A program made the position numbers and the translations under genes. Shown here one piece after another: positions 1 through 17,173 of a stretch of 17,173 nt of DNA (positions are counted from its first letter, which is position 1; each line of letters starts with the position of its first letter). The notes under the pieces were generated by a model. The model made no database searches. It saw only the letters and a program-made list of their open reading frames with translations, and was not told the DNA's origin. The DNA lies in the IMG/VR virus record IMGVR_UViG_2675903324_000013; one strand, written 5' to 3'. This DNA is from a virus (Duplodnaviria; Heunggongvirae; Uroviricota; Caudoviricetes).

Positions 1-1230
1 ATGAGCAGAGCACTTAACAAACTGAGCGATACACAGCTGAGGAAAATCAACGGCACACCCGCCCAAAAAACAGCCTTTCTTAATGACGGTGGAAACCTGA
101 GCGTCAGGCATTCAACCAGTGGCCTTTTAACCTGGTATTTCACTTACAGGGCCGGAACGGGAAGGGGGGCACCACCGGAACGCATTAAGCTGGGAAATTA
201 TCCTGATCTGAGCCTGAAATCAGCCAGGGAAAAAGCCGCCCAGTGTCGCGCATGGCTGGCAGAGGGGAAAAATCCACGTCATGAAATGAATTACACCGTA
301 CAGGAAGCGTTAAAGCCGGTAACGGTTGGCGATGCGCTCACCTACTGGCTTGAGTCGTACGCAAAGGAAAACCGTGTGGATTATGACCCACTGAAAAAGC
401 GGCTAAATAATCACGTAATACAGCACATTGGCCCTATGCCGCTGGATAAATGCGAGCTACGGCACTGGCTGGCCTGTTTTGATCGGGTGGCAAAGAAAGC
501 CCCTGTTTCCGCCGGGTTCCTGCTACAGACATGCAAGCAGGCGCTTAAGTTCTGCAGGAAGCGGCGCTATGCAATCAGCAACGTTCTTGATGATATGAGT
601 GTGGCGGACGTTGGGAAAAAACCGGATATAAGTGAGCGTGTCTTAAGTAACAAAGAACTTGGCGAATTATTGCAGGCACTGGACAAAAAAATATTTTCCC
701 CTTACTACGTCGCACTAATCCGCCTCCTGATTGTTTTCGGATGCCGGACAGTAGAACTGAGGTTATCGGAGATCGGCGAGTGGGATTTTACCGAAATGCT
801 CTGGACCGTTCCGAAGGAGCACAGCAAAACGAAGGTAGCCATATTCCGGCCCATACCGGAAGCGATACTGCCGTTCGTCACGCAGCTGGTGGAGCAGAAC
901 AGGCACACGGGCTTATTGCTGGGGGAAGTGAAACAGGAAACCAGCGTATCGCAGTACGGCAGATTAGCGCACAGGAGGCTAAAACACCCTCAATGGTCAT
1001 TGCATGACATCCGGCGCACCTTTACAACCATGCTGAACGATTTAGGCGTTGATCCTCACGTCGTGGAGCAGCTTACAGGCCACCAGATGCCAGGAATGCA
1101 ACGCGTGTACAACCATTCCCGCTATATTGATGCGAAACGCAATGCGCTTGATATGTGGGTGGAGCGGTTGGAGATACTGGCGGGAACACATGAAAACGTA
1201 ACCACGCTACCAGTAACCAGAATAAAATAA
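1..1230 (+). CDS. int: Tyrosine recombinase / integrase, P4 (CP4-57) type
   Basis: 409-aa ORF starting at window base 1. C-terminal catalytic region carries the tyrosine-recombinase signature residues (…LHDIRRTFTT…, …GHQ…, …VYNHSRY…). Followed by an AlpA gene as in P4-like islands. Confidence 0.9.
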   Translation: MSRALNKLSDTQLRKINGTPAQKTAFLNDGGNLSVRHSTSGLLTWYFTYRAGTGRGAPPERIKLGNYPDLSLKSAREKAAQCRAWLAEGKNPRHEMNYTVQEALKPVTVGDALTYWLESYAKENRVDYDPLKKRLNNHVIQHIGPMPLDKCELRHWLACFDRVAKKAPVSAGFLLQTCKQALKFCRKRRYAISNVLDDMSVADVGKKPDISERVLSNKELGELLQALDKKIFSPYYVALIRLLIVFGCRTVELRLSEIGEWDFTEMLWTVPKEHSKTKVAIFRPIPEAILPFVTQLVEQNRHTGLLLGEVKQETSVSQYGRLAHRRLKHPQWSLHDIRRTFTTMLNDLGVDPHVVEQLTGHQMPGMQRVYNHSRYIDAKRNALDMWVERLEILAGTHENVTTLPVTRIK

Positions 1231-1263: not shown

Positions 1264-1279
1264 GATAAGTGCACAGATA

Positions 1280-1319
1280 CAACGTGAAACAATGTGCAAC
1301 AACGTGACACAATCACGAA
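1280..1319. repeat. Four tandem 10-bp phased repeats (caacgtgaaa / caatgtgcaa / caacgtgaca / caatcacgaa)
   Basis: Directly visible with exact 10-bp periodicity between int and alpA; candidate binding array for a recombination-directionality factor or regulator. Confidence 0.5.
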
Positions 1320-1419
1320 CAAGAGGCCAAAAAGAATACAGATTTGTAAGTTGCTGATTTTTAATGCTCAGCTGGTTTTTTATACATTAGTGAATTACGC
1401 GTTAAAGCGTGCGAAAAAA

Positions 1420-1448
1420 GGCATAAAACAAGATTTTATGCCTTTGTA
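1420..1448 (+). terminator. Intrinsic terminator-like hairpin downstream of int
   Basis: 9-bp stem GGCATAAAA / TTTTATGCC with loop CAAGA, A-run before and T-rich tract after, so it could act in both directions. Confidence 0.5.
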
Positions 1449-1604
1449 TTAACATGAATTTAAATGATTTTATCCTGATTATTCCTCTTTCTGTAAACCA
1501 TGCGACACCAACATTTGCCAACTCTGAATCATCCTGACACAATCAGACACATCCCAACGCAATAGAACACGAAATAACTCTTTAAGAAACGAAAGGGGGC
1601 AATA

Positions 1605-1793
1605 GTGTTAAGCACTGATCGGTTTATACGTGAAAAAGAATGCGAAAAGCTAACAGGCCTTAGCCGCTCATGCCGCTACCGCCTGGAAAAGGCCGGACAA
1701 TTCCCATCACGTCGTAAACTTGGTGGGCGTTCTGTTGGCTGGTCTTTATCTGAGGTTTTGGCCTGGAAGGATAGCTGCAAGGCAGTTCACTAA
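1605..1793 (+). CDS. alpA: AlpA-family phage regulatory protein (small HTH activator / excisionase-like)
   Basis: GTG start 5 nt after a GGGGG Shine-Dalgarno; 62 aa with the AlpA pattern …LTGLSRS.RYRL…GQFP…KLGGRSVGW…EV..W. Confidence 0.85.
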   Translation: MLSTDRFIREKECEKLTGLSRSCRYRLEKAGQFPSRRKLGGRSVGWSLSEVLAWKDSCKAVH

Positions 1794-4743: not shown

Positions 4744-6137
4744 AAAGCGCACCGAACTTAAAAAAACAGCCTTACGACAAGATGACCGAAGTCATCATTT
4801 TTGCGGGTAGTGATGCGTGGGCACATGCGAAACAGTGGCAGGAACAGGACGGGCGACTGGCTGGCGATAATGTGCCTCCCATTGTGCTGGCTGATGATCA
4901 ACTGGATGAACTGGCAGACCTGAGAATCATCGACGAGGGGCGCTATTGTGTCCGGCTGTACAAGGCAGGCCACATCAGGCCATCAAATATTAATGCCATT
5001 GCGCACAAGCTGGCGGCGGCGGGCGTAACTGATGCGAATTATTACCCCGAAGGGATACACAGCCAGAAGCGGGAGAACTGGCGCGAATATCTGGAACGGG
5101 AGCGGGGGAAAAAGCCAGGGGAAGAACACCACCAGCGAAAAACCACGCTACCGATGAGCGTTGGATCTGCCGGATATGACACGCAATTAGATTACGTGGT
5201 AAAGGGGATTATTCCGGCATCGTCGCTATGCAGCATATACGGGGCAAGCGGTTCCTATAAATCATTCCTTGCGGGTTCGTGGGCGTGTCACGTTTCCACG
5301 GGCCGCCAGTGGGGAGGCCGCAGGGTGGCGCATGGCGCTGTTCTCTATGTGGTTGGTGAAGGCGGTATCGGCGTTCCGCGTCGTGTAAAAGCCTGGGAGG
5401 TTGTGCACGGTGAGCAGGTGAAAAATCTGTATCTGGTAAACCGTCCAGTTTTTCCGGCTGTCCCGCTTGATGTTGATGAACTGGTTATCGCTGCCCGTCA
5501 GGTGGAGCGGGAAACGGGTAAACCTGTACGCATGATTATTCTTGATACTCTGGCGCGTTGCTTTGGTGGCAATGATGAAAATGATTCCCGTGATATGGGG
5601 GCGTTTATCCGTGGGTGTGACGAGCTTAAACGGCGCACAGGGGCCACGGTGCTGGTGGTTCACCATTCCGGCAAGGATGAGACGAAAGGCGCGCGCGGTT
5701 CCAGTGCATTTCGTGCTTCGCTGGATGCTGAATACCGGATACGCAGGGAGGACGCAGGAAGCGAAGCGCTGGTTATCTCATGCACCAAAATGAAGGACGC
5801 GGAGGAACTCAAAGAGGCTGCCTATGATTTGCGGGTGGTGGAGCTTTTTACCGACGCTGACGGGGAGTTAATCACGTCGCTGGTGGTGGTGGATAAGCCG
5901 CGCCCTCCCGTTGAACTGGAGCGCATCGAGGAGGCAGGCAACAAGACGGAAAACCATACCGCACTATGGGGGTGCATCCGTTCACGCACACAGAACGGCG
6001 ACAAGTGCACGATCCCGCTGTTACGTGATGACATGAAACGGCTTGGGTATGACGTGAAAAATATGCGGCGATGGTTAGCCAAACTGGAAAAAGACGCCGT
6101 GATTTACATTGATGGTGATGATGTAGGACCACTGTAA
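4740..6137 (+). CDS. Replication protein: RepA-like / AAA_25-type RecA-fold ATPase with C-terminal presumed DNA-binding region
   Basis: P-loop-like motif GASGSYKS (non-canonical), Walker-B-like RMIILDTLAR, and LVVHHSGKDETKGARGSSAF typical of RepA/AAA_25 helicase-loader proteins; immediately followed by an iteron array. Confidence 0.65.
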   Translation: MKSAPNLKKQPYDKMTEVIIFAGSDAWAHAKQWQEQDGRLAGDNVPPIVLADDQLDELADLRIIDEGRYCVRLYKAGHIRPSNINAIAHKLAAAGVTDANYYPEGIHSQKRENWREYLERERGKKPGEEHHQRKTTLPMSVGSAGYDTQLDYVVKGIIPASSLCSIYGASGSYKSFLAGSWACHVSTGRQWGGRRVAHGAVLYVVGEGGIGVPRRVKAWEVVHGEQVKNLYLVNRPVFPAVPLDVDELVIAARQVERETGKPVRMIILDTLARCFGGNDENDSRDMGAFIRGCDELKRRTGATVLVVHHSGKDETKGARGSSAFRASLDAEYRIRREDAGSEALVISCTKMKDAEELKEAAYDLRVVELFTDADGELITSLVVVDKPRPPVELERIEEAGNKTENHTALWGCIRSRTQNGDKCTIPLLRDDMKRLGYDVKNMRRWLAKLEKDAVIYIDGDDVGPL

Positions 6138-6340
6138 AAAGTGAGTAGCAAAAGTGAGTAATGGTGAGGTTTTTACAAAATATTAACACGATTACTCACT
6201 TTCTCACCTGTATACATACTCAAAAGTGAGGAGTAAAAAAATGCTTATGAAACATGCACATATAAAACACGAAAATCTCAAGCGAGACGAAGTGAGACGC
6301 GTTAAAAAGTGAGGCGTAAAAGTGAGCGCGAGTGAGGAGA
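6137..6340. repeat. Iteron array, putative origin of replication: about 10 copies of AAAGTGAG(G/T) in both orientations
   Basis: GTGAG at 6141, 6154, 6164, 6226, 6292, 6309, 6322, 6332 and inverted CTCAC at 6195, 6203; spacings of 10 and 13 bp; AT-rich stretch in the middle; directly downstream of the Rep gene. Confidence 0.55.
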
Positions 6341-6348
6341 TAACCAAA

Positions 6349-6591
6349 ATGCGCAGAGACAGAACAGCGCCAAAATATAAAGCGTTAGACATGACAGAGC
6401 ACGCTTTAAAGGTGGCAATCAGAACGATAGACCGCCACGCGGGGGAAGGATACGCGAAGGAACATCCCGACCTGATAAGCGCATTCATGACCACAGCGGC
6501 GGCAAACTTTGCCACGCTGACAGAACGGGAGATTGCCGAAGCGGAACAGGTAACAACCATCAACGTTAAAACCGGAGAGGTGGAATCATGA
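6349..6591 (+). CDS. Hypothetical protein (80 aa)
   Basis: ATG at 6349 with GAGGAG 9 nt upstream; the track start (GTG 6322) lies inside the iterons. Confidence 0.45.
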   Translation: MRRDRTAPKYKALDMTEHALKVAIRTIDRHAGEGYAKEHPDLISAFMTTAAANFATLTEREIAEAEQVTTINVKTGEVES

Positions 6592-6911: not shown

Positions 6912-7322
6912 ATGACAGCACAAATTGCAGCTTACGGGCGGCTGGTGGCTGACCCGCAGTTAAAGACCACCAGCAAGGGTACACAAATGACGATGGCGAG
7001 TATGGCGGTCCCCCTTCCGTGCAGCCAGGCAGATGACGGAACGGTGACGATGTGGTTATCCGTCCTGGCATTTGGCAGACAGGCCGAAGCACTGGCAAGG
7101 CACCGCAAAGGTGAACTCCTGACCGTGGCGGGTAACATGCAGATCAGCCAGTGGACCGGACAGAACGGGGAAACACGGCAGGGGTATCAGGTTATTGCAG
7201 ACAGCGTAATCAGTGCCCGCGCGGCACGTCCAGGCGGGAACAGACGCAAAACCACAGGCACACAGGGTAATCAGCCACCAGCGGGAGGCGATGACCCTTA
7301 CGGTGACGGTATTCCGTTCTGA
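6912..7322 (+). CDS. ssb: Single-stranded DNA-binding protein (OB-fold SSB with acidic C-terminal tail …DDPYGDGIPF)
   Basis: Pattern …GRL..DP.L…W..V..FG..AE…KGE…V.G…W…GE.R… parallels bacterial SSB; Gly-rich linker; terminal DGIPF resembling the canonical DDDIPF tail; GAGGTG RBS. Confidence 0.8.
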   Translation: MTAQIAAYGRLVADPQLKTTSKGTQMTMASMAVPLPCSQADDGTVTMWLSVLAFGRQAEALARHRKGELLTVAGNMQISQWTGQNGETRQGYQVIADSVISARAARPGGNRRKTTGTQGNQPPAGGDDPYGDGIPF

Positions 7323-7332
7323 GGGGGTGACG

Positions 7333-7569
7333 ATGGTACATGACCGCATAGCGGAGGAACTCGAGGCAAAAGGCTTTTACCGGAGGGCGTCGGCGCGATG
7401 GGGTGAAGTCATGCAACTGGTGGAGACAGACAAGGAACGGCATCAGGTTACGATGCGACGGCTGGAATGTTCCAGGAAGGCACAGAGGCCACCGGAGAAC
7501 TACGCAGACCTGAGAAATGCAGTAAATCGCACTTATGCAGACATGGGGCTGAGCAAATTAGCTGAGTAG
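7333..7569 (+). CDS. Small regulator-like protein (78 aa), possibly PerC-family
   Basis: GAGGGGG RBS; basic helical protein with the motif DRIAEELEAKGFYRRASARWGEVM, which I recall as PerC-like. Assignment is from memory, not searched. Confidence 0.4.
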   Translation: MVHDRIAEELEAKGFYRRASARWGEVMQLVETDKERHQVTMRRLECSRKAQRPPENYADLRNAVNRTYADMGLSKLAE

Positions 7570-7591
7570 GAATATCAGAACCACACCACGC

Positions 7592-7615
7592 AGCCGGAGC
7601 AATCCGGCTTTTTTT
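7592..7615 (+). terminator. Strong intrinsic terminator T1 (stem AGCCGGA / TCCGGCT, GCAA tetraloop, U7)
   Basis: Read directly; follows the stop at 7569. Confidence 0.7.
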
Positions 7616-7710
7616 GCGTCATTTGAAATGGTATGGCGCACTACTGGCTTTTCGTCACGGTCCGGCATAGTTACTATCTGAAACAAACAGACACAACAGA
7701 GGAAAAAACA

Positions 7711-7935
7711 ATGCCGACGAAATTTGATGAGATATTAAAACAGCGTGATAAATACCATGCTGACAACATGGAGACGATGAACATCACTGATTACCGAGCA
7801 TTCCTGGAAACGGGGGCGCTGATTGAAAAGGATCATCATGGTTTTGTTCGTTGCGCGCTATCCGGTGAAATGCTGGCGGTAAATCCTGAACAGACAGATG
7901 CATTGATAGAATTTCTGAAAGGGATCAGGGACTGA
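7711..7935 (+). CDS. Hypothetical protein (74 aa) in a terminator-bracketed cassette (moron-like)
   Basis: ATG 7711 with GAGGA RBS; possible own promoter (-10 TACTAT at 7672-7677); flanked by two copies of the same terminator. Confidence 0.5.
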   Translation: MPTKFDEILKQRDKYHADNMETMNITDYRAFLETGALIEKDHHGFVRCALSGEMLAVNPEQTDALIEFLKGIRD

Positions 7936-7945
7936 GCACCCATAC

Positions 7946-7967
7946 AGCCGGAGCAATCCGGCTTTTT
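7946..7967 (+). terminator. Intrinsic terminator T2, 23 bp identical to T1 (cagccggagcaatccggcttttt)
   Basis: Read directly. Confidence 0.7.
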
Positions 7968-7986
7968 GTTATTTTTTGTAAATTAT

Positions 7987-8016
7987 TTGTTCGTGGTTGT
8001 TCCACGTTGTTCACTG
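7987..8016. repeat. Three tandem 10-bp repeats TTGTTCgtgg / TTGTTCcacg / TTGTTCactg overlapping a candidate late promoter
   Basis: 10-bp phasing; the third unit is a possible -35 (TTGTTC), with TATTTT at 8029-8034 after a 16-bp spacer; the 15-mer ttgttccacgttgtt recurs at 15574-15588. Confidence 0.45.
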
Positions 8017-8071
8017 AGCGGATCGGCATATTTTACCCGAACTGAATCATGATTATTCTCGCCCGTGGTGC

Positions 8072-8226
8072 CAGGACGCTGGGGCCACTTTCCCGCCTGT
8101 TAATGTGCTCGCCAATATTCATTACCAGGCGGGAAAACGATCGGTGCGATTGCTGATTCCCTTATGAAAAACGGTTGAGTTTTTGCCGCGTCCTGGAGTT
8201 CCTTACTTAACCCCAGGACTTTTTTT
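8072..8226 (+). promoter_or_regulatory. Structured leader of the head-gene operon with alternative pairings and a sequestered Shine-Dalgarno
   Basis: 8188-8196 (GCGTCCTGG) can pair either with 8072-8080 (CCAGGACGC, 9 bp) or with 8213-8219 (CCAGGAC, 7 bp). The latter hairpin is followed by T7 and contains the AGGA SD of the capsid gene (8215-8218). A further 9-bp stem with 26-nt loop lies at 8092-8135. Confidence 0.4.
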
Positions 8227-9384
8227 ATGCCGAGAATAATCGAATTACGCCAGCAGAAAACCGCCATTAAAAATCAGATGCGCGACATGCTGGAGAACGC
8301 GGAAAAAGAAAACCGCAGTCTTAACGATGCTGAGGGCGCAAAATTTGACGAATTACGCGCTAAAGCTGAATCCCTCGATAAAGACATTTCCCGCCTTGAA
8401 GCCATTGCAGACGAAGAGCGCAGCAAGCCAGGTAAAAGCAGCCAGACCACTGACCCCGCAGAACTACGCAGCTACATTCTGACAGGTGAAACCCGCGCAT
8501 TAAGTACAGGCGTTCCCGCTGATGGTGGTTATACCGTTATCCCCGAACTGAACACCGAAATCATGCGAATGCTGGCGGATGAGTCCACCATGCGCCGCAT
8601 CTGTACCGTGAAAAAAATCAGCAGCAACGAGTTTAAGCAGCTTGTTTCCGCTGGCGGTGCGACCGTTAACCACGGTGAAGAGGGTAAGGCACGCGAACAG
8701 ACCAGCACCCCGCAGATTAACGAGGTGAGCATTAAGCTGTATCCGGTCTATGCGTACCCGCGCACCACACAGGAAATCGTGGATTTTTCCGATGTGGACA
8801 TCCTTTCATGGCTGACGGGTGAGATTGGCGACACCTTCACGGAAACCGAAGAAAGCGATCTGGTTGTGGGCGACGGTGACAAAAAAGCAAAAGGTTTTTT
8901 ATCCGTACCCCGTGCAGAGAAGAACGACAAAGAGCGTGATTTTGGTACGTTGCAGGTAATTAAACCTTCCGAATCTCTGGCGTGGACATCTGCGGACCCG
9001 CTGATCGACCTGAAATTTGCATTACGTAAAAAATACCGCAAAAACGCGGTCTGGGTGGTTAACTCCACGACGGCGGCAAAACTCCAGAAGGTGAAGAACG
9101 CGAACGGTGATTACATCTGGCGTGACCGTTTACAGGCGGGTGATCCTGATACGTTGCTGGGCCTTCCGGTCGAATATCTGGAGTTTATGCCTGATAACGT
9201 TATTGCCCTGGGTGACTTCAAACGCGGTTACTACATTGTTGATCACGAAACAGGTGTTCGCACCAGACCGGACAACCTCACAGAGCCGGGCTTCATCAAA
9301 ATTTTCACGCAGAAATATTTAGGCGGTGGCGTGGTGGATTCGAACGCGATCAAGATTCTGGAACTGCCACAGGACGACGATTAA
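8227..9384 (+). CDS. Major capsid protein, HK97 fold, with N-terminal coiled-coil delta domain
   Basis: 385 aa; coiled-coil N-terminus (IELRQQKTAIKNQMRDMLENAEKE…) and a C-terminal region paralleling HK97 gp5 (…VWVVNSTTAAKL…GDYIW…LLGLPVEYLEFMP…GDFKRGYYIVDHETG…). Confidence 0.9.
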   Translation: MPRIIELRQQKTAIKNQMRDMLENAEKENRSLNDAEGAKFDELRAKAESLDKDISRLEAIADEERSKPGKSSQTTDPAELRSYILTGETRALSTGVPADGGYTVIPELNTEIMRMLADESTMRRICTVKKISSNEFKQLVSAGGATVNHGEEGKAREQTSTPQINEVSIKLYPVYAYPRTTQEIVDFSDVDILSWLTGEIGDTFTETEESDLVVGDGDKKAKGFLSVPRAEKNDKERDFGTLQVIKPSESLAWTSADPLIDLKFALRKKYRKNAVWVVNSTTAAKLQKVKNANGDYIWRDRLQAGDPDTLLGLPVEYLEFMPDNVIALGDFKRGYYIVDHETGVRTRPDNLTEPGFIKIFTQKYLGGGVVDSNAIKILELPQDDD

Positions 9385-9394
9385 CAGCATACAG

Positions 9395-9414
9395 AAGGGG
9401 CTTAAAAGCCCCTT
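9395..9414 (+). terminator. Hairpin after the capsid gene (stem AAGGGGC / GCCCCTT, loop TTTTAA), possible attenuating terminator
   Basis: Read directly; followed by T-rich sequence. A partial terminator after a highly expressed capsid gene is common in phages. Confidence 0.35.
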
Positions 9415-9423
9415 TAGTGTTTT

Positions 9424-9996
9424 ATGGGTGAAAAAATTATGAAGAGTATGGAAATCCGGTCATCGGAAATCACCACCAGCGGCAGCAACACGCTTACAGG
9501 CTACGTTGTTCGCTGGGATAAGCTTTCAGAACTGTTATGGGGTGAGTTTTACGAAAAATTCCAGCGGGGGGCGTTTACTGAATGGCTTGCGGCGGGTAAT
9601 GACGTTCGCGGCCTGTATGAGCATGACCACAGTATGTTACTGGGGCGCACCCGTTCCGGCACGCTGAAACTGGAAGAGGATGAAACAGGGTTACGCTTTG
9701 AACTGACCCCACCGGATACCAGTACAGGGCGCGACGTTATCGAACTGGTTAAACGTGGTGATATATCCGGCATGAGCTTTGGCTTTCGCTCCCGTAAGGA
9801 TGTATGGGATACCACAACAGATCCATGCGTGCGCACCGTGCTGGTGGCGGAACTGTACGAAATTACCGTTACATCGGTACCGGCTTACCCCGATTCCGGC
9901 GTGGAGCTGGCCCGCCGTTCCCTGTATGAGCAGCACCCCGAAAAAATGCCGCGTGCGGATAATCGCCGCTGGTGGGTGGATTTAGCGGGGGTGTGA
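9424..9996 (+). CDS. Prohead maturation protease, HK97 family (S78/U35)
   Basis: 190 aa with …LTGYVVRWD…FQRGAF…LYEHD…LLGRT…L.LEEDE.GL.FE…ISGMSFGF…VPAYP…; exact start among ATG 9424, 9439 or 9448 is uncertain. Confidence 0.85.
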   Translation: MGEKIMKSMEIRSSEITTSGSNTLTGYVVRWDKLSELLWGEFYEKFQRGAFTEWLAAGNDVRGLYEHDHSMLLGRTRSGTLKLEEDETGLRFELTPPDTSTGRDVIELVKRGDISGMSFGFRSRKDVWDTTTDPCVRTVLVAELYEITVTSVPAYPDSGVELARRSLYEQHPEKMPRADNRRWWVDLAGV

Positions 9997-9997
9997 T

Positions 9998-11209
9998 ATG
10001 TGGCCTTTCAGAAGAAAAAAAGAGCAGCGCAGCATGACGCTTGATGAATTTATGGCGCTGGCTGGCACATCGAACACGGGGGCGGGTGAGTACGTATCAT
10101 CGGGGACAGCGGAATCACTGCCTGCCGTCATGAACGCCGTTACGGTCATCTCTGAGGCGGTGGCTACCATGCCGTGTTACCTGTACCTGGTACGCAATGA
10201 GAAGGGGAAGGAGGCCCGCGAGTGGCTTGATTCTCATCCGGTCGATCACATCCTCAACGAGCGCCCGAACGCATGGCAAACCCCCTACCAGTTTAAGCGA
10301 ATGATGATCCGCCACTGCCTGTTAAACGGTAATGCTTATGCGGTTATTCAGTGGGGGCGTGATGGTTTTCCGGCGGCTTTACATCCTTACCCGCCGCAGT
10401 CGGTGAACGTGGAGCAGACAGGCGAACACAACTGGCGCTATTGCATCACTGACGCCTACACCGGAAACACCCACAACTATTTACCGTGGGAAGTACTTCA
10501 CCTTCGTTACTCCACGGATGACGGCTTTATGGGGCGCTCACCTGTAACCATCTGCCGCGAATCGCTGGGGCTTGGGCTGGCCCAACAACGCCACGGCGCG
10601 AGCGTGATGCGTGATGGCATGATGGCGGCAGGGGTTATCACGTCAGGCGAATGGCTGGACGGCGTGAAGGGCAAACAGGCATTAGCCGCACTGGAACGCT
10701 ACAAAGGGGCCAGAAACGCCGGAAAAACGCCCATCCTTGAAGGGGGGATGAGCTATCAGCAGCTGGGCATGAGTAATCAGGATGCTGAATGGCTGGCCTC
10801 CCGTCGCTTTACCATTGAAGACATCGCCCGAATGTTCAACGTCTCGCCGATTTTTTTGCAGGAATACAGCAACAGCACCTACAGCAATTTCAGCGAGGCA
10901 AGCCGCGCATTTCTCACCATGACGATGCGCCCGTGGCTGGCGAACTTTGAGCAGCAGATAAAAAACGCCCTGCTGGTGGCCTCGCCTGTACCTGGTATCC
11001 GGTATCAGGTGGAGTTTGACAGCGCGGACCTGTTACGGGCCACACCTGGCGAACGCTTTGCCACCTATGAGCGCGGCATCAAATCCGGCGTTATGTGCCC
11101 GAACGAAGCCCGCGAACGTGAAGGACTGTCACCGCGTGATGGTGGTGATGAGTTCAGTCAGGCATGGAAACAGGAAGTAAAAATCAGCGAGGGAGAAAAA
11201 CCGGAATGA
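9998..11209 (+). CDS. Portal protein, HK97 family
   Basis: 403 aa; GGGGG RBS; motifs …LLNGNAYAVIQW…, …GRSP…, …ARNAGKTPILEGG…, …IEDIARMFNVSPIFL…, …NEAREREGLSPRDGGDE. Confidence 0.9.
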   Translation: MWPFRRKKEQRSMTLDEFMALAGTSNTGAGEYVSSGTAESLPAVMNAVTVISEAVATMPCYLYLVRNEKGKEAREWLDSHPVDHILNERPNAWQTPYQFKRMMIRHCLLNGNAYAVIQWGRDGFPAALHPYPPQSVNVEQTGEHNWRYCITDAYTGNTHNYLPWEVLHLRYSTDDGFMGRSPVTICRESLGLGLAQQRHGASVMRDGMMAAGVITSGEWLDGVKGKQALAALERYKGARNAGKTPILEGGMSYQQLGMSNQDAEWLASRRFTIEDIARMFNVSPIFLQEYSNSTYSNFSEASRAFLTMTMRPWLANFEQQIKNALLVASPVPGIRYQVEFDSADLLRATPGERFATYERGIKSGVMCPNEAREREGLSPRDGGDEFSQAWKQEVKISEGEKPE

Positions 11210-11544
11210 ACATAGGGCGACTGCGTGACAGGATAACGATTCAGACCCTGAAACAGACCAGAGCCATGACGGGCGAAATACTCGAAACGTGGGAGGACGG
11301 TCACACACTCTGGGCAAGCGTGAACATGATCAGCAGCAAGGAGGCCATTTCATCGGGCGCAGAGCTGGCGATTGGTACCGTAAGGATCTGGATACGGTAC
11401 CGGAAGGACATCAACGCCACCAGCCGGATAAAGGTCAGTACGGGGCCGCTGGCGGGGCGTGTACTGAATATCATCGGGCAGCCGTTGCCGGATGTCGCCA
11501 GGACACGCCTTGAAATTCTTTGTCGTGAGGGCGCGGAAAAATGA
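11206..11544 (+). CDS. Head-tail joining / head closure protein (Phage_H_T_join-like)
   Basis: ATGA overlap with the portal stop; pattern …GRLRDRITIQ…GE..E.W.D…WASV…IRYR…RI…LEILCRE. Confidence 0.7.
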   Translation: MNIGRLRDRITIQTLKQTRAMTGEILETWEDGHTLWASVNMISSKEAISSGAELAIGTVRIWIRYRKDINATSRIKVSTGPLAGRVLNIIGQPLPDVARTRLEILCREGAEK

Positions 11545-11837
11545 CAGAAGAACTTATCACCCTGGAAGAAGTGAAACTCCATTGCCGTATCGATGGAGAC
11601 GAGGAAGACCAGTTAATCAGCGGATACATTGCCGCATCGCTTGAGGCGTGCCAGATACACATAGGCAGGCGCTTTGATGACGGGCTGGAGTTCACGCCAG
11701 CCATAAAGATTGGCTGCATGATGTTTATCGCTCACCTGTATGAGAATCGCCAGATTGTCGCGGATAACGCAAAAACACGCGTACCCATGACGATTGGCGC
11801 ACTCTGGACGGCTTACCGTGATGTGGGGGTGTACTGA
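11541..11837 (+). CDS. Head-tail connector protein, gp6-like
   Basis: …LEEVKLHCRIDGDEEDQLISGYIAAS…AHLYENRQ…, typical of gp6-like connector proteins; GAGGG RBS. Confidence 0.7.
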   Translation: MTEELITLEEVKLHCRIDGDEEDQLISGYIAASLEACQIHIGRRFDDGLEFTPAIKIGCMMFIAHLYENRQIVADNAKTRVPMTIGALWTAYRDVGVY

Positions 11838-12277
11838 TGCCGTGGCAACCATTAAGACGATGCACAGAACCAGGCTGTAACAGGCGCGTTAAATCCGGCA
11901 AGTGTGAGGAGCACAGGCGGGCGGCATGGCGTGCAGAGGATGCCAGACGAGGACACCGCCGCGCGCGTGGATATTCCAGACAGTGGGACAAATACCGCGC
12001 CATGTATCTGAGTAAAAACCCGTTATGCGTGCGATGCCTTGAGAAGGGGATATATACGCCCGCCGTGGTGGTGGATCACATTATCCCGATTAATGGCGGT
12101 GATGATGTTCTCTTCTGGCCCGAATGGAACCATCAACCATTGTGCCAGGCGTGTCATAACCAGAAAACGAAATGGCTTGATCCGGCAACAAAAAGCAAGC
12201 GTGCCGCAGGTGGATTTCGTGAAGAGGAAGAACGGGCCGCTAACCGCAATAACTGGATGTATGACGCTGATGAATGA
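11837..12277 (+). CDS. HNH endonuclease (packaging-associated)
   Basis: Cys-rich N-terminus and …CVRC…VVDHIIPINGG…NHQPLCQACHNQKT…; GGGGG RBS; located just upstream of terS as in HNH-dependent cos packaging systems. Confidence 0.85.
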   Translation: MPWQPLRRCTEPGCNRRVKSGKCEEHRRAAWRAEDARRGHRRARGYSRQWDKYRAMYLSKNPLCVRCLEKGIYTPAVVVDHIIPINGGDDVLFWPEWNHQPLCQACHNQKTKWLDPATKSKRAAGGFREEEERAANRNNWMYDADE

Positions 12278-12454
12278 GCGGGAACAAAACCGCCTTATCC
12301 GTGGACTTATAAGGCAGCGTGACGCATGGAAGACACAGGAAACAGGGCATAAAGATAAAGCGTCAGGACGCGCAGAACGCATCACAGCGAAGCGATTAAC
12401 CGACCGTGACCGCGAGGTTATGGAATGTTTCCGCAATCGCTGATGAGGCTGTAT

Positions 12455-12540
12455 GACGGGGTGGGGGGCGTTTTCAGGACAAACCCGACCCCGCCGGGCA
12501 CCGAACGCCTCCTCAAATTTTTATGCACGGGAATTTTTTG
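12455..12540. other. Candidate cos / packaging recognition region between HNH and terS
   Basis: GC-rich blocks GACGGGGTGGGGGGCG and CCCGACCCCGCCGGGC followed by an AT-rich tract; position inferred from known HNH-TerS-cos arrangements. Confidence 0.25.
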
Positions 12541-12566
12541 AAAAATAATCTGGCGAAAAAATAAGC

Positions 12567-12923
12567 ATGTCAAGACCACCGAAAGCCCCCGCCTACCTGG
12601 ATGATATCGCCGTGAAGCAGTGGCGGGAAAAATCTAGGCAGCTTGCGGAACGGGGAGACCTGACCCCCGCCGACTGGAGCAATCTGGAACTGTATTGTGT
12701 CAACTACTCCATTTACCGGAAAGCCGTTGCAGACCTTGCGGCGCGCGGGTTCAGCATTGTTAACAGTCAGGGCGGTGAGAGCAGAAACCCCGCATTAAGC
12801 GCAAAATCCGACGCTGAAAGAGTGATGATAAAAATGGCCTCTTTGCTCGGTTTTGACCCGATAAGCCGCCGTAAAAATCCACCGGAAACAGAAGAAGAGG
12901 ACGAGCTTGACCGCCTGGAATAA
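12567..12923 (+). CDS. Terminase small subunit (P27-family-like)
   Basis: 118 aa, …NLELYCVNYSIYRKAVADL…NP…LGFDPISRR…, acidic C-terminus; immediately precedes TerL. Confidence 0.75.
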   Translation: MSRPPKAPAYLDDIAVKQWREKSRQLAERGDLTPADWSNLELYCVNYSIYRKAVADLAARGFSIVNSQGGESRNPALSAKSDAERVMIKMASLLGFDPISRRKNPPETEEEDELDRLE

Positions 12924-14568
12924 GTACGCAGAAGACGTAAAAACGGGCAAAATTCCGGCCTGTAAACGGCTGAAACAGGCCGTTAAACGGTACTTTTCGG
13001 ACCTTGAAAGCCCCCTTTACACGTTCGATCGTGAGGTTGTGGAGCGGTTTATTGCCTTTTCCAGGGTGTGCCCGCACGTAAAAGGGCCGATGCGTGGCAG
13101 ATCCATTGAGCTGGAGCCGTGGCAGCAGTTCGCCTTTGCGTGCATCCTCGGCTTTAAGGTTAAGGCCACCGGACGGCGCAAATACACGAGCGCCTTTATC
13201 GAAGTGCCGCGCAAAAATGCGAAATCCACGACCGCCGCGATTCTGGCTAACTGGTTTCTGATTATGGAGAACGGGCAGCAGGATATTTACACCGCAGCGG
13301 TGAGCCGTGACCAGGCGCGGATCGTTTTTGATGATGCGCGTCAGATGTGCCTTTTATCCCGACCGTTACGCAGGCGGGTGAATATTCAGGCCCACAAGGT
13401 GATGCACCCGAAAAGCAACAGCCTGTTAAAGCCGCTGGCAGCAAAAGCGGCAACCATCGAGGGCACAAACCCAAGCCTTTCCATCGTGGACGAATACCAC
13501 CTACACCCCGATAACGGCGTTTATTCCGCGCTTGAGCTGGGGATGGGCGCACGTCCCGAAGGGCTGTTATTTGCCATTACCACATCGGGCAGTAACGTCG
13601 TTTCAGCCTGTAAGCAGCACTATGATTATTGCTGCCAGATCCTGGACGGCGAAGAGGTCAACGATTCAATTTTTGTGCTGATTTACGAGCTGGACGACGA
13701 AAACGAGGTTGATGATCCGGCGATGTGGATAAAGGCTAACCCTAACATCGATGTTTCCGTGGATCGTGAAAAACTGGCCTCAACCATCCAGAAAGCGCGG
13801 GGTATTCCGTCGCAATGGGTGGAGATGATGACAAAGCGATTTAATATCTGGTGCCAGGGGGCTACCCCGTGGATGGGTAACGGCGCATGGGCTGAGTGTG
13901 CCGGAACGTTCACGGAGGAAGATTTACACGGGCAGGAGTGTTACGCGGGGCTGGACTTATCATCAACCAGCGATATTTCCAGCGTGTGCTATGCCTTTCC
14001 GGTCGGTAAAAATATCATGCTGGTTTCCCGTCATTATCTGCCGGAGTTCCAGCTACAGAACCCCGCCAATAAAAACCGCGCTGTCTATCGCCAGTGGGCT
14101 AAAGCGGGCTGGATACGCACAACGCCAGGTGACTGCATTGATTACGACCGGATCAGAGATGACATCATGCAGGATGCGGAGAAATTTAATATCAGGCTGG
14201 TGGGCTTTGATACGTGGAACGCCACGCATCTCAGGACGCAATTACAGGGGGCTGGTTTTGAGGTGGAGCCGTTCCCGCAAACCTACCTCAGATTCAGTCC
14301 GGCGGCGAAATCGTTCGAAGTTTTTGTTAACCGCAGGGTGATTGTGCATCGTGGCGATCCGGTGTTGTCCTGGTCGATGAGTAACGTCGTGATGCAGAGT
14401 GACGCGAACGCCAATATCAAGCCGAACAAGAAAAAATCACCGAACAAGATAGACCCGAGCGTAGCGGCGCTGATGGCGTTTGGTACATTCCAGGCAGAGC
14501 ATGAGGATTTTGCTTTTGATATAAGCGACAGCCACCGCCAGAAACTGGAAGAATTTAGCGGGGTGTAA
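12907..14568 (+). CDS. Terminase large subunit (ATPase-nuclease)
   Basis: 553 aa; apparent TTG start at 12907 overlapping the terS end by 17 nt, with AGAGGA upstream; N-terminal pattern …W..YAEDV.TGKI…, then ATPase and nuclease-like regions. Confidence 0.9.
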   Translation: MTAWNKYAEDVKTGKIPACKRLKQAVKRYFSDLESPLYTFDREVVERFIAFSRVCPHVKGPMRGRSIELEPWQQFAFACILGFKVKATGRRKYTSAFIEVPRKNAKSTTAAILANWFLIMENGQQDIYTAAVSRDQARIVFDDARQMCLLSRPLRRRVNIQAHKVMHPKSNSLLKPLAAKAATIEGTNPSLSIVDEYHLHPDNGVYSALELGMGARPEGLLFAITTSGSNVVSACKQHYDYCCQILDGEEVNDSIFVLIYELDDENEVDDPAMWIKANPNIDVSVDREKLASTIQKARGIPSQWVEMMTKRFNIWCQGATPWMGNGAWAECAGTFTEEDLHGQECYAGLDLSSTSDISSVCYAFPVGKNIMLVSRHYLPEFQLQNPANKNRAVYRQWAKAGWIRTTPGDCIDYDRIRDDIMQDAEKFNIRLVGFDTWNATHLRTQLQGAGFEVEPFPQTYLRFSPAAKSFEVFVNRRVIVHRGDPVLSWSMSNVVMQSDANANIKPNKKKSPNKIDPSVAALMAFGTFQAEHEDFAFDISDSHRQKLEEFSGV

Positions 14569-14581
14569 TGAGGTCAGCAGC

Positions 14582-14863
14582 ATGACAGAAGCCGAAATAC
14601 TGCGATTAATCCGCCGCGTCTCTGGAATCAGCCAGCAGGCTGACGAACAGACCACGCAGCCGGACAGCGTGACAGCCGAAAATTATGCGCGTGTTGTTGC
14701 TGAGGTGATGCGCCGTGATGGTATCCAGCTTAATGATGCGGATATGCGCGACATACGGATCCGCGTTCTGGAAATGCTGGCCTACAATCGCCGCGTTGAA
14801 CTGTATCGGGAGAAGGAGAAAATCACGTACCACTGGAAGAAGCCGGAGCGGTTACGGCGGTAA
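14582..14863 (+). CDS. Hypothetical protein (93 aa), terminal gene of the island
   Basis: GAGG RBS 8 nt upstream; the stop overlaps the first copy of the CGGCGGTAACT repeat. Confidence 0.5.
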   Translation: MTEAEILRLIRRVSGISQQADEQTTQPDSVTAENYARVVAEVMRRDGIQLNDADMRDIRIRVLEMLAYNRRVELYREKEKITYHWKKPERLRR

Positions 14864-15135
14864 CTTGTTGATTAAAAGGCGGCTCAATTCTGAGCTGGGT
14901 AGCTGACGGCGGTAACTGTTTGATATTCCCGATAACGCAAAATTGCGCTGACTACATCCCTCACATCTGAGGACTGTTAACCAGCAGGCCGGAATATATT
15001 CACAAACTACGAAATTTTCGTAGTTTAATTACTCGCCAGTTTATCGTTAACTAGTTGATATTTTCGGAAACCTCAATTTGAGGAAGTCGGCGCGGTAACT
15101 GTTTTATATTCCCGATAGCGCAAAAATGCGCGGTC
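14854..15135. repeat. Direct repeats R1 (14854-14873, partial), R2 (14905-14952) and R3 (15089-15135) sharing CGG(C)GGTAACTGTTTkATATTCCCGATArCGCAAAAwTGCGC; candidate att copies
   Basis: R2 and R3 match over about 40 bp with 2-3 differences; each carries the near-palindrome CGCAAAATTGCG; palindromes CTACGAAATTTTCGTAG (15007-15023) and CCTCAATTTGAGG (15071-15083) lie between them. Confidence 0.5.
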
Positions 15136-15160
15136 GGGCAGAATGAGCACCACCTCAATC

Positions 15161-15195
15161 GTGACGGAGAGTGACAACCAGTGACACACCGTGAC
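15161..15195. repeat. Four GTGAC pentamers in exact 10-bp phasing (gtgacggaga gtgacaacca gtgacacacc gtgacaaaaa)
   Basis: Read directly; similar GTGA-containing 10-bp phased array near int at 1280-1319. Confidence 0.55.
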
Positions 15196-15248
15196 AAAAA
15201 GACGGTTTAACCGTTCATTAAAAATCGACGTGATTTTGTGCTTTCCGG

Positions 15249-15272
15249 ATGACGTGGCCAACGTCATTTTTT
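15249..15272 (+). terminator. Intrinsic terminator-like hairpin (stem ATGACGT / ACGTCAT, loop GGCCA, then T6)
   Basis: Read directly; no annotated plus-strand gene ends here. Confidence 0.4.
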
Positions 15273-15712
15273 AGCGAAAAATTCTGATTAAGGTCACTGG
15301 CTGAATGGTCATAATGACCACGCAGACCATCGAGGCAACCATAGCGATCATCGTTACGGTTGGAGCTTTTCCGCCATTGGTGGAAAAGGTGCACATCTGG
15401 ATCATCATTACGGTGATCAAGGGTATGTAAAACCCACCAGCCTGATTAAAGGTTAACCGGAAAAAAAATCCGGTAGCCCCGTTATGGGGATCCCCATATC
15501 GACATTAACGCCCCTCATGAATTGGTGCGCTTCCCCCTGGAAAGATTACCCGCCTGTATATTTCTTGTGTCTATTTGTTCCACGTTGTTTCATACAGTGC
15601 ACCGAACGGTGTAGTTAATGGTGTAGTCAATTTGCGATTTTTGGCACTTTTTCAATGATAATTGTTTAATTAAATCAATGGCTTGACCTGGTATAGTGAT
15701 AAAAGGACATAT

Positions 15713-17173
15713 TTATTCATCTTTCGGCGCAGAATGCTGGCGACCAAAAATCACCTCCATCCGCGCACCGCCCAGCATGCTCTCTCCGGCGACGATTTTA
15801 CCCTCATATTGCTCGGTGATTTCGCGGGCTACCGCCAGCCCTACACCTTGCCCAGGGCGTAAAGTATCAACCCGTTGACCACGGTCGAAAATGACCTCTC
15901 GCTTGCTTAATGGAATACCGGGGCCATCATCCTCGACCACAATATAGAGATGCTCGTCGGTTTGCCTTGCAGAAATTTCGACAAACTCGAGGCAATATTT
16001 ACAGGCATTATCCAGCACGTTGCCCATCACCTCGACAAAATCGTTCTGCTCACCGACAAAGCTGATCTCTGGCGAAATATCGAGAGAGATATTGACCCCT
16101 TTGCGTTGATACACTTTGTTCAGCGCTGAGGTGAGATTGTCCAGCAGTGGGGCGACCGGATGCAGCTCGCGGCTGAGCAATGTCCCGCCGCGCATACTGG
16201 CACGATGCAGGTAGTAGCCAATTTGCTGTGAAATGCGGCTGATTTGCTCCAGCATTACCGGCTCAGCATCACTGACGCTCATCTTTTCACTACGCAGAGA
16301 ACGCAGCGTACTTTGCAGCACCGCCAGTGGCGTTTTCAGACTATGGGTCAGGTCGGTGAGCGTCGTACGGTATTTGTCGTAACGTTCGCGTTCACTTTTT
16401 AACAATCGGTTCAGGTTTCGTACCAGACTGGTCAGTTCTCGCGTTGTGGCTGGATTGAGCAATTCGCGGTTATGTTCTTCCAGTTCGCGGACTTCTTTTG
16501 CCAGGGCTTCGATGGGGCGTAAACTCCACCAGGCGGCGACCCACAGCAGCGGGATCACTAACAGCAGATTGGCTGAGAGCACATAGATAAACCAGCTCCA
16601 GACCATATAGGAACTTTTTAGCTCCACCGGAATGGTATCCACCACCACAATGGTTAATTTTGGCATCCGCGATGTTGCCGGGTAGACGTTTACTGCCACC
16701 GAGTGGGTCATCTCCGCGTCGTCATCATCTTCCCGCACTTCCTGCAACTGTTGCTGTATCGAATGATCTCCACTCAGCAAGAGGCTGGTATCGTTAACAT
16801 CCGCTTCAATTTCATGAAAACCATTCGATTTCAGCCAGTCAGGCTGGATCATCTTCATCAGCCAGGGCACGTCACGTTGCGCCCATAAAAGCTGCCCGTT
16901 CTCATCATAAATTAGCGTCATGGTGGGGCTTTGCTTGTCGATATTTTCGGGTAACTCGACATGCAACTTATTGTTTTCCCACTTCGCAAGGGTATAGAAC
17001 AGATTGCTCTCGCCACGTAACAGCCGAAACGTAGTTTTATCGAAACTGACGCTATAACCGATCAGCGCGACCATTCCGTAGGCAAGCGAAAGCACCAGTA
17101 CTACCGCAGCCGTTGCCAACAGAAAACGTACCCGCAGTGAGAGCGGGAAAAAAAGACGCAGTAATTTTTTCAT
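15713..17173 (-). CDS. phoQ: Sensor histidine kinase PhoQ (PhoPQ two-component system), full length
   Basis: 486-aa product whose sequence I recognise as Escherichia coli PhoQ (N-terminus [77 protein letters not shown]…, acidic patch [11 protein letters not shown]-box and ATP-binding motifs); start codon at the last bases of the window. Confidence 0.97.

Follow-up and report, generated by a model that had tools for sequence, protein, structure and literature searches.

Phased TTGT repeats as candidate AlpA operators in a capsid-forming PICI between roxA and phoQ

A capsid-forming island and its repeat arrays

The DNA analysed here is IMG/VR record IMGVR_UViG_2675903324_000013, a stretch of 17,173 nucleotides (the window) that is classed with the Caudoviricetes and matches Escherichia coli chromosomes over its entire length. 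By its gene content the window is a capsid-forming phage-inducible chromosomal island (PICI; cf-PICI for the capsid-forming kind) of ~15.9 kb, inserted between roxA and phoQ. It carries an integrase gene (int), alpA, a replication module, a complete HK97-type capsid and packaging module and its own attachment (att) site, and it is without tail and lysis genes, as judged from the open reading frames (ORFs) and the annotation of the matching record. The published cf-PICI definition has this same content (int, alpA, replication and HK97-type head/packaging genes, no tail or lysis genes) in about 10-16 kb. The packaging operon runs capsid, protease, portal, head closure, connector, HNH, terS, terL and ends at 14568; a RepA-family helicase, a single-stranded DNA-binding protein (SSB) and PerC are also encoded. 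Gram-negative phage satellites (PICIs, cf-PICIs and PICMIs) have AlpA as their master switch. Our subject is a set of 10-bp phased repeats beginning TTGT that occur both at the att arms and upstream of alpA and the capsid operon. We propose, with a probability of about 60%, that they are candidate operator arrays of AlpA, which would act through them as both recombination directionality factor (RDF) and transcription activator.

The first-pass annotation had drawn attention to a 15-mer, TTGTTCCACGTTGTT, present at 7997-8011 and, by its count, at 15574-15588. The first copy is exactly where it was reported, and the second lies one base further on, at 15575-15589. Each copy sits, as described, within three tandem 10-bp units that begin with TTGT (7987-8016 and 15565-15594), and the exact identity arises because the two arrays share the consensus unit TTGTTCCACG and the TTGTT that comes after it. 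The earlier chance estimate of ~0.3 for such a pair also holds, as the expected number of 15-mer pairs is 0.15 in direct orientation and 0.27-0.30 in both orientations. The repeat context is far beyond chance: allowing up to two mismatches, the 15-mer has 5 matches against 0.10 expected, the pattern TTGT-N6-TTGT-N6-TTGT has 5 against 0.00 expected (200 shuffles), and three-unit scores with a unit matrix reach 32.7-38.7 bits, the best shuffle giving 19.1. The late and attR-arm sites show 77% identity across 35 nt, of which 10 nt lie 5' of the units (repeat family D3).

There are at least four arrays rather than the two originally seen, and the strong ones are four: in the attL arm, at 1273-1322, at 7987-8016 and at 15565-15594 (Table 1). 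The five-unit, minus-strand array at 1273-1322 lies inside the window and had been missed. The attL-arm array could not have been noticed because the window begins at the int ATG; that arm, comprising array, doubled 12-bp motif and core, lies 22-181 bp upstream and outside (L001 2820-2978; related loci are cited by L numbers). In the reconstructed attP, the two arm arrays are centred -130 and +107 from the core centre, the attR-arm array spanning -145 to -115, and the doubled 12-mer is 13 bp away in attR and 3 bp away in attL. The other two strong arrays are far from att, 1.4 kb and 8 kb from attL within the island, and have no 12-mers beside them.

The island borders were set by comparison with the empty site of E. 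coli K-12, where the roxA-phoQ spacer is just 75 bp and reads ...gaagtatgggcatatttattcatc.... The left junction in island-bearing strains is gtatGGACATATTTtatcaatt (L001 2820-2829) and the right junction is aaaaGGACATATTTattcatc (window 15705-15714), where the att core overlaps the phoQ stop codon (15713-15715, minus strand). The repeats near phoQ are therefore island DNA in the attR arm, 115-145 bp inside attR. The first-pass annotation had offered two alternatives, a common regulator acting at the late promoter and at the island-host junction, or an island reaching almost to phoQ. Both are true together, except that the phoQ-side copy is a recombination site of the att arm and not a regulator site of the host junction.

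Table 1 Repeat arrays, genes and associated features. Positions are those of the window unless a locus is given.
Feature	Position	Strand	Sequence	Remarks
int, tyrosine integrase with N-terminal arm-type DNA-binding domain	1-1230	+		Pfam PF13356 Arm-DNA-bind_3 (5.5e-18), PF00589
alpA, 62-aa AlpA-family winged-helix protein	1605-1793	+		Pfam PF05930 (5e-18)
Major capsid gene, first in HK97-type packaging operon	8227-9384	+		ORFs, annotation
phoQ, host gene, intact	15713-17173	-		ORFs, annotation
att core, right island junction	15705-15714		GGACATATTT	K-12 empty site compared with attL and attR
attL-arm array, four units	L001 2912-2951		TTGTTCCAGC TTGTTTCACG TTGTAGCCCT TTGTGCAACG	Exact 10-bp period
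int-alpA spacer array, five 10-bp units	1273-1322	-	TTGTTCGTGA TTGTGTCACG TTGTTGCACA TTGTTTCACG TTGTATCTGT	
Late array, three units	7987-8016	+	TTGTTCGTGG TTGTTCCACG TTGTTCACTG	Holds first 15-mer
Late-operon block	7974-8016	+	TTTTGTAAATTAT then TTGTTCGTGG TTGTTCCACG TTGTTCACTG	43 bp
attR-arm array, three units	15565-15594	+	TTGTGTCTAT TTGTTCCACG TTGTTTCATA	Holds second 15-mer
Weak proximal array	1523-1562	-	ATGTGTCTGA TTGTGTCAGG	With degenerate neighbours
Weak array, two units	7677-7696	-	TTGTGTCTGT TTGTTTCAGA	Low-confidence member
Candidate array, differing unit (TTGTCAC type)	15170-15199	-	TTGTCACGGT GTGTCACTGG TTGTCACTCT, plus CCGTCACG	10-bp phased
Doubled 12-bp motif	15608-15631	+	GGTGTAGTTAAT GGTGTAGTCAAT	Centred -90; attL copy (L001 2955-2978) centred +142
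Intrinsic-terminator hairpin with T-run	7946-7963	+	AGCCGGAGCAATCCGGCT	23 bp ahead of late array
Conserved hairpin flanked by A-run and T-run	1417-1445		AAAGGCATAAAA-N5-TTTTATGCCTTT	Also in EcCICFT073

Three weaker arrays accompany the strong ones. That at 1523-1562 overlaps the sole sigma-70-like site upstream of alpA (TTGCCA-17-CACAAT, 1515-1543), and other islands have equivalents between -61 and -83 relative to alpA (e.g. TTGTGTCGGA TTGTGTCAGG). The two units at 7677-7696 adjoin the ribosome-binding site of a small ORF (7711-7935) and are kept in many islands, some 320 bp ahead of the late array. The array at 15170-15199 is likewise found in many islands, ~370 bp to the left of the attR-arm array in an 850-bp stretch with no annotated gene; its membership is uncertain, and it may be a variant of the AlpA arrays or be bound by a different protein.

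Between the int-alpA array and alpA, the hairpin at 1417-1445 looks like a bidirectional terminator. As this layout of terminator and then array mirrors the late site, we considered that the minus-strand array might drive an antisense-int transcript, but no -10 element was found to support this, and a scan for consensus promoters gave no convincing leftward promoter after the array. On its other side, directly 3' of the int stop codon, is a perfect 16-bp palindrome, CAGTATGCGCATACTG (1248-1263), which overlaps a CTG-N10-CAG sequence in the frame of a LexA box (CTGGATAAGTGCACAG, 1261-1276) that abuts the array. This LexA-like site may be unrelated, because alpA induction has been published as SOS-independent.

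Conservation and covariation of the repeats

Related islands (~90 loci) were drawn from an E. coli genome collection and from an alignment-based scan of viral contigs. Across these, TTGT core and 10-bp register hardly vary, and the remaining unit positions drift. The int-alpA array is present in virtually all islands with a type-A AlpA (types defined below), at -322 to -346 from alpA and with 5-7 units. It was seen in 24 distinct versions, in which the TTGT core deviates in about 6 of about 125 units, and mean pairwise identity is 0.98 in the core, 0.72 at unit positions 5-10 and 0.59 in the flanks. The positions of the arrays are constant among islands inserted at six different attachment sites. 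This recurrence in ~90 islands, other att sites included, makes the shared binding site put forward in the first-pass annotation the best explanation. For a mere coincidence, that annotation had looked to island-free strains with the motif and homologous islands without it; we see the reverse, as the K-12 spacer lacks the motif and the homologous islands carry it.

Changes in unit number were also observed. At L041 1261-1330, whole-unit duplication of TTGTTGCTCA has given an array of 7 units, and in the type-B island L009 (15943-15960) two forward GTTCG units, 10 bp apart and directly upstream of alpA, stand in place of the long inverted array of type-A islands. Comparison of such sequences indicates that the arrays evolve by whole units.

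The second repeat of the att arms behaves differently. A tandem pair of 12-mers of the GGTGTAGTTAAT type adjoins the array in both arms and occurs nowhere else in the island. Across the ~90 loci the 12-mer follows the N-terminal hairpin of Int exactly, in five variants: hairpin SVRHSTSGLL is paired with GGTGTAGTYAAT, SVKYLTSGKL with GGTGTAGTCAYT, EIKHSKGGKL with TGTGTGGTCAGT, SVKVSKIGVM with KGTGTAGTCAGT, and SVRVSVSGTV with TGTGTATTGCAR, the last being the published 'doubled motif' of helper-embedded PICIs (HE-PICIs). In L007, an island in tqsA, AlpA is identical to that of the window (WP_000953271.1) and Int, at 89% identity, differs mainly in residues 1-60; the TTGT arrays are unchanged, and all four 12-mers have become GGTGTAGTCACT or GGTGTAGTCATT (TTAAT to TCACT). 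Because the 12-mers covary with the arm hairpin of Int, we assign the doubled 12-mers as Int arm-type sites and the TTGT arrays as something else. The arrays themselves show no covariation with the Int N-terminal hairpin and are not confined to att.

This assignment bears on the HE-PICI doubled motif, for which two copies of tgTGTATTGCan at about -81/+132 were described, the binder (Int or AlpA) was left open, and absence from other PICIs was stated (PMC10111431). The island studied here is alike in having co-oriented tandem pairs of 12 bp that flank the core, at -90/+142, and the 'attP arm sequence repeats' annotated in satellite P4 (NC_001609) have the same architecture, with tandem 12-mers at about -75/+134 (L095 3942-3965 and 4151-4174). 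The HE-PICI and P4 motifs correspond to the 12-mers beside the TTGT arrays and not to the arrays. One IMG/VR locus, L081, bears the published HE-PICI motif upstream of its int, and equivalent doubled motifs of other sequence are found here (the window, L007, L009, L010, L091). The covariation assigns the doubled motif of PICI attP to the Int arm domain and makes it general to the integrase family, not specific to HE-PICIs.

The TTGT units vary with a different protein. By its recognition region AlpA falls into type A (LSRSCRYRLEK) and type B (VSRTTRYELEK or VCRTTRYEMEK). Position 7 of the arm units is C in 12 of 14 type-A units and G in 15 of 16 type-B units, counts that are not phylogenetically independent; Fisher p-values overstate their independence, because they come from two main AlpA types and one recombinant in related lineages. 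That recombination is seen in L010, where a type-B AlpA occurs with the Int hairpin and 12-mer of the window, and position 7 of the arm units is G instead of C. In these sequences the flavour of the unit goes with the AlpA variant, as the 12-mer goes with Int.

AlpA as the candidate binder, and the alternatives

AlpA, modelled from its single sequence with AlphaFold2 (pLDDT 87), is predicted to have an excisionase fold. The best fold match is the GIsul2 excisionase 8c3t (TM 0.79/0.86, 39% identity), and further matches are the RdfS and TorI excisionases and MerR-type winged helices. Besides Int, AlpA is the sole recognisable double-strand-DNA-binding protein encoded by all islands examined. 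Three other island proteins were considered as binders and rejected: PerC is missing from L008, L010 and L011, which still have arrays; YlcI/YnfO is identical in L011, L009 and L010, of which L011 has another array flavour; and arrays are shared by islands with a RepA-helicase and islands with a primase as replicase. In the att arms we see what an RDF site would look like, namely phased repeats of ~10 bp adjoining Int arm sites, in an element that encodes a small winged-helix RDF, and published work on sister islands finds alpA to be required for excision.

The closest experimental anchor is EcCICFT073 which, like EcCIEDL933, belongs to the same island family as the window. It occupies the same roxA-phoQ site and has a near-identical Int, an AlpA 93.5% identical to that of the window and the same arrays, its Int and AlpA proteins being those of L008. 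Its alpA is required for induction and transfer, and AlpA alone brings about excision, replication and activation of its own promoter, leaving Pint unaffected (PMC6092414). By mapping the published primers, we located the PalpA reporter at L094 7128-7583. This fragment contains a six-unit array (7182-7251) and a proximal pair (7443-7472), and these TTGT arrays, candidates for the responsible element, are its only direct repeats. The attL array and the 12-mers fall within the Pint reporter (about 5623-6471), so the lack of response of this reporter to AlpA fits a role of the arm arrays in recombination and not as promoter elements. For EcCIEDL933, capsids were made from a strain overexpressing alpA (bioRxiv 10.1101/2022.09.08.507074), and AlpA expression therefore suffices, directly or indirectly, for turning on the packaging operon of a cf-PICI. 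The window has the cf-PICI gene set, whereas the late module of EcCICFT073 differs and has no array upstream.

Taken together, we envisage that a helper phage induces alpA and that AlpA monomers bind head-to-tail, one per helical turn, on TTGT(T/G)N(C)NNN units. At attL and attR, array-bound AlpA would bend the arm and help arm-bound Int to build the excisive complex. At the int-alpA array, together with the weak pair over the alpA promoter (1523-1562), binding would give positive autoregulation and so amplify AlpA synthesis, and at 7974-8016, behind a terminator, AlpA would turn on the capsid-to-terL operon only after induction. We infer the binding of the units by AlpA, the head-to-tail mode and the AlpA-dependence of a promoter at 7974-8016; the locations of the repeats, their conservation in register and their covariation are observed.

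The late site deserves separate description. Its block (Table 1) lies 11-70 bp after the terminator hairpin and about 210 bp ahead of the capsid ATG, and homology between the late modules of different islands starts at this block. One lineage (L037, L077, L078 and L090) has kept the block, like a footprint, between an unrelated upstream terminator and an unrelated downstream leader. The block is also present in the type-B cf-PICI L009, where its middle unit is degenerate. A weak -35-like TTGTTC (8007-8012) followed after 16 bp by TATTTT (8029-8034) is the sole promoter-like feature, and we treat the block as a candidate AlpA-dependent promoter element.

The surroundings of this site show some further structure. 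The diverged late-module lineage has another hairpin instead of AGCCGGAGCAATCCGGCT. An identical copy of AGCCGGAGCAATCCGGCT is found at 7592-7609 (repeat family D12), and a 28-nt repeat (93%) at 7586-7613 and 7940-7967, each copy with this hairpin, flanks the small ORF at 7711-7935, which has the look of an inserted cassette separating PerC from the late operon. Directly before the capsid ATG is another hairpin, GTCCTGG-N16-CCAGGAC with a run of seven T (8190-8229), which the main lineage conserves. The 3' half of its stem includes an AGGA ribosome-binding site, and the hairpin could serve as an attenuator or in translational control of the capsid gene.

Several observations weigh against AlpA operators as proposed here. 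In the literature searched we found no operator or binding data for any PICI AlpA; published accounts still debate whether AlpA is activator, excisionase or both, and none of the papers retrieved defines a DNA site. The TTGT core is the same for both AlpA types and some G-type units occur in type-A arrays also, in addition to the phylogenetic dependence of the covariation counts. The int-alpA array is oriented away from alpA, at a distance of 280-330 bp from the start codon, and the terminator-like hairpin at 1417-1445 stands between them, which is awkward for a simple activator. At the late site the term 'late promoter' used in the first-pass annotation is plausible, but a sigma-70 consensus scan finds no promoter near 7974-8016, and the TTGTTC-16-TATTTT pair is weak and not kept in the diverged lineage. 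No array precedes the capsid genes in PICIs with another late module (L006, L008, L010, L011 and EcCICFT073). A profile comparison of AlpA with TorI is weak (hhalign probability 9%) and TorI is not matched by PF05930, so the relation of the two is argued from fold only. Two elements that encode distant relatives of AlpA also give negatives. Satellite P4 has no TTGT-type array, and around attL, intA and alpA of CP4-57, where AlpA was first defined, neither a clean TTGT array nor a phased one is seen, a result made uninformative by the very diverged AlpA of that element.

Among other explanations, a binder different from AlpA is the one we would keep in mind, although we think it unlikely. Candidates are a host protein that binds direct repeats (e.g. 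of OmpR/PhoB type), a different protein of the island, or one from the helper phage, for instance an inducing excisionase. AlpA binding is itself only predicted, published work names no helper-supplied inducer of alpA, crosstalk of excisionases between one PICI and its helper has been reported, and phage excisionases of TorI type recognise similar GTTCG repeats. Against such a binder, AlpA in the absence of phage or island activates the PalpA fragment, whose sole direct repeats are the arrays, and AlpA alone triggers excision and replication. Unit flavour also differs within the same host species and follows the AlpA type, and just AlpA and Int are recognisable double-strand-DNA binders in every island examined, PerC being absent from several and YlcI not tracking flavour. 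A PhoP box, considered because phoQ adjoins, was rejected: period and sequence differ, and the same arrays are found in islands at five other loci. That the TTGT arrays are instead the arm-type sites of Int, the doubled 12-mer being bound by something else such as AlpA, is very improbable. In its favour, the arrays stand co-oriented on the two sides of the core, in the manner of arm-type sites, Int possesses a domain for arm binding, and the 2023 HE-PICI paper allowed either protein as binder of the doubled motif (PMC10111431). Yet it is the 12-mer, not the array, that tracks the Int hairpin in five variants, all four 12-mers differ between L007 and the window despite identical AlpA, and arrays differ between L010 and the window despite the same Int hairpin. 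The arrays at 1273-1322 and 7987-8016, far from att and free of 12-mers, fit poorly with arm-type sites as well, and the annotated arm repeats of P4 are tandem 12-mers at matching distances.

Two further readings can be given hardly any weight. The arrays might be replication iterons of the island origin, since iterons typically take the form of tandem 10-bp direct repeats and P4 carries 'ori type 2' repeats of 10 bp; however, the same arrays occur with unrelated replicases (RepA-family helicase or primase), they are located in att arms and ahead of operons, and a separate GTGAG cluster lies directly after the replicase gene (6135-6345). A chance match, or a functionless relic of a duplication involving the attR arm and the region upstream of the capsid gene, appears just as remote. 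An exact 15-mer pair is expected 0.15-0.3 times in 17 kb, and 77% identity over 35 nt could mean common descent, but the array-level statistics rule out chance, core and register survive the divergence of the other unit positions and flanks, and positions are fixed in islands at six attachment sites.

An experimental parallel for AlpA operators of this kind is KplE1 (CPS-53) of E. coli K-12, where TorI binds GTTCG-type sites at attL (Panis et al. 2010, PMC2951348). A block of three TorI sites, 2 nt apart, overlaps the intS promoter and precedes the arm-type sites of IntS (PMC2951348). In the K-12 sequence the block reads CAGTTCGTCA TGGTTCGCTT CAGATCGTTG, with a 10-bp period, just upstream of the intS -35. 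KplE1 resembles the window in its small winged-helix excisionase and its phased repeats followed by Int arm sites, with int reading inward from attL; the order at the attL of the window, array, arm sites and then int ATG, is that of KplE1. The core sequences are near-identical, GTTCG in KplE1 and units with GTTCG or GTTCC (TTGTTCGTGG, TTGTTCCACG) in the window. The two differ in that TorI represses intS, whereas AlpA has no effect on Pint in EcCICFT073, and in that KplE1 sites are described at att only, whereas the arrays of the window lie on both arms and at two internal positions.

P2 Cox, 186 Apl, P4 Vis and lambda Xis (X1-X1.5-X2) are excisionases and regulators that bind phased direct repeats at att sites and promoters, and Cox, Apl and Vis mainly repress their own promoters. 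As proposed for AlpA, one small protein bends an att arm and the same repeats regulate promoters; Vis is the AlpA homologue of satellite P4. Unlike Cox, Apl and Vis, AlpA would act by activation, for which autoactivation is published and control of the capsid operon is inferred. The three 10-bp 'ori type 2' repeats of P4, which we take to be P2 Cox boxes, are TTAAAG-type units that differ from TTGT units. The principle of an excisionase on phased repeats at att and promoters is well established from lambda, KplE1, P2, 186 and P4, and the value of the present analysis is a specific prediction rather than a new kind of mechanism.

If this prediction is correct, one repeat code at the att arms, in the fragment upstream of alpA and at the capsid operon would unify the activator and excisionase roles of AlpA, and suggests that the capsid genes of cf-PICIs are wired directly to it. 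The arrays give precise targets for electrophoretic mobility-shift assays, chromatin immunoprecipitation and mutagenesis. We also raise, as a long shot, an extended version in which the arrays act together as one cis-code, with excision, AlpA amplification and capsid production under the direct control of AlpA, and may be read by the excisionase of the helper too, letting the satellite sense induction. The idea comes from the resemblance of the arrays to the GTTCG-type sites of phage excisionases in the TorI/Xis family. Were it true, eavesdropping on the helper excisionase would identify the long-sought phage inducer of Gram-negative PICIs.

Other features of the island

No tRNA genes were found in the window, and an Rfam scan of the whole window returned no RNA family. 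In O157:H7 genomes the PICI at the roxA-phoQ site is not capsid-forming. In one of these (L006, strain FRIK944) an IS3-family element at 15458-16784 lies between the attL arm and int and truncates the start of int; the attL-arm array and 12-mers are intact despite the insertion, which has probably immobilised the island.

The GTGAG cluster mentioned above comprises about nine iteron-like repeats (GTGAG / AAAGTGAG), some of them inverted, around the start of the next small ORF and directly 3' of the RepA-family helicase gene. PICI origins have been reported beside the replicase gene, and by its position this cluster is probably the replication origin of the island.

Three other repeats were recorded. 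A direct repeat of 75 nt (84%) in the variable zone that follows alpA, at 2230-2304 and 2915-2989 with copies 685 bp apart, has a small minus-strand ORF next to each copy (YlcI/YnfO-like in one case and hypothetical in the other). This looks like a duplicated small module, possibly of the regulatory-RNA/immunity units of a PICI 'Bro zone'. An exact 16-mer, TATCAGGCTGGTGGGC, occurs both in the variable zone (2035-2050) and inside terL (14190-14205), in neither case with a repeat context, and the pair may be due to chance. Finally, a 40-nt repeat is present three times in the non-coding DNA between the last ORF and attR (14909-14948, 15044-15083 and 15092-15131), the other copies having 93% and 65% identity to the first. 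A small palindrome, GCGCAAAATTGCGC or GCGCAAAAATGCGC, is present in each of the two well-conserved copies (14909-14948 and 15092-15131).

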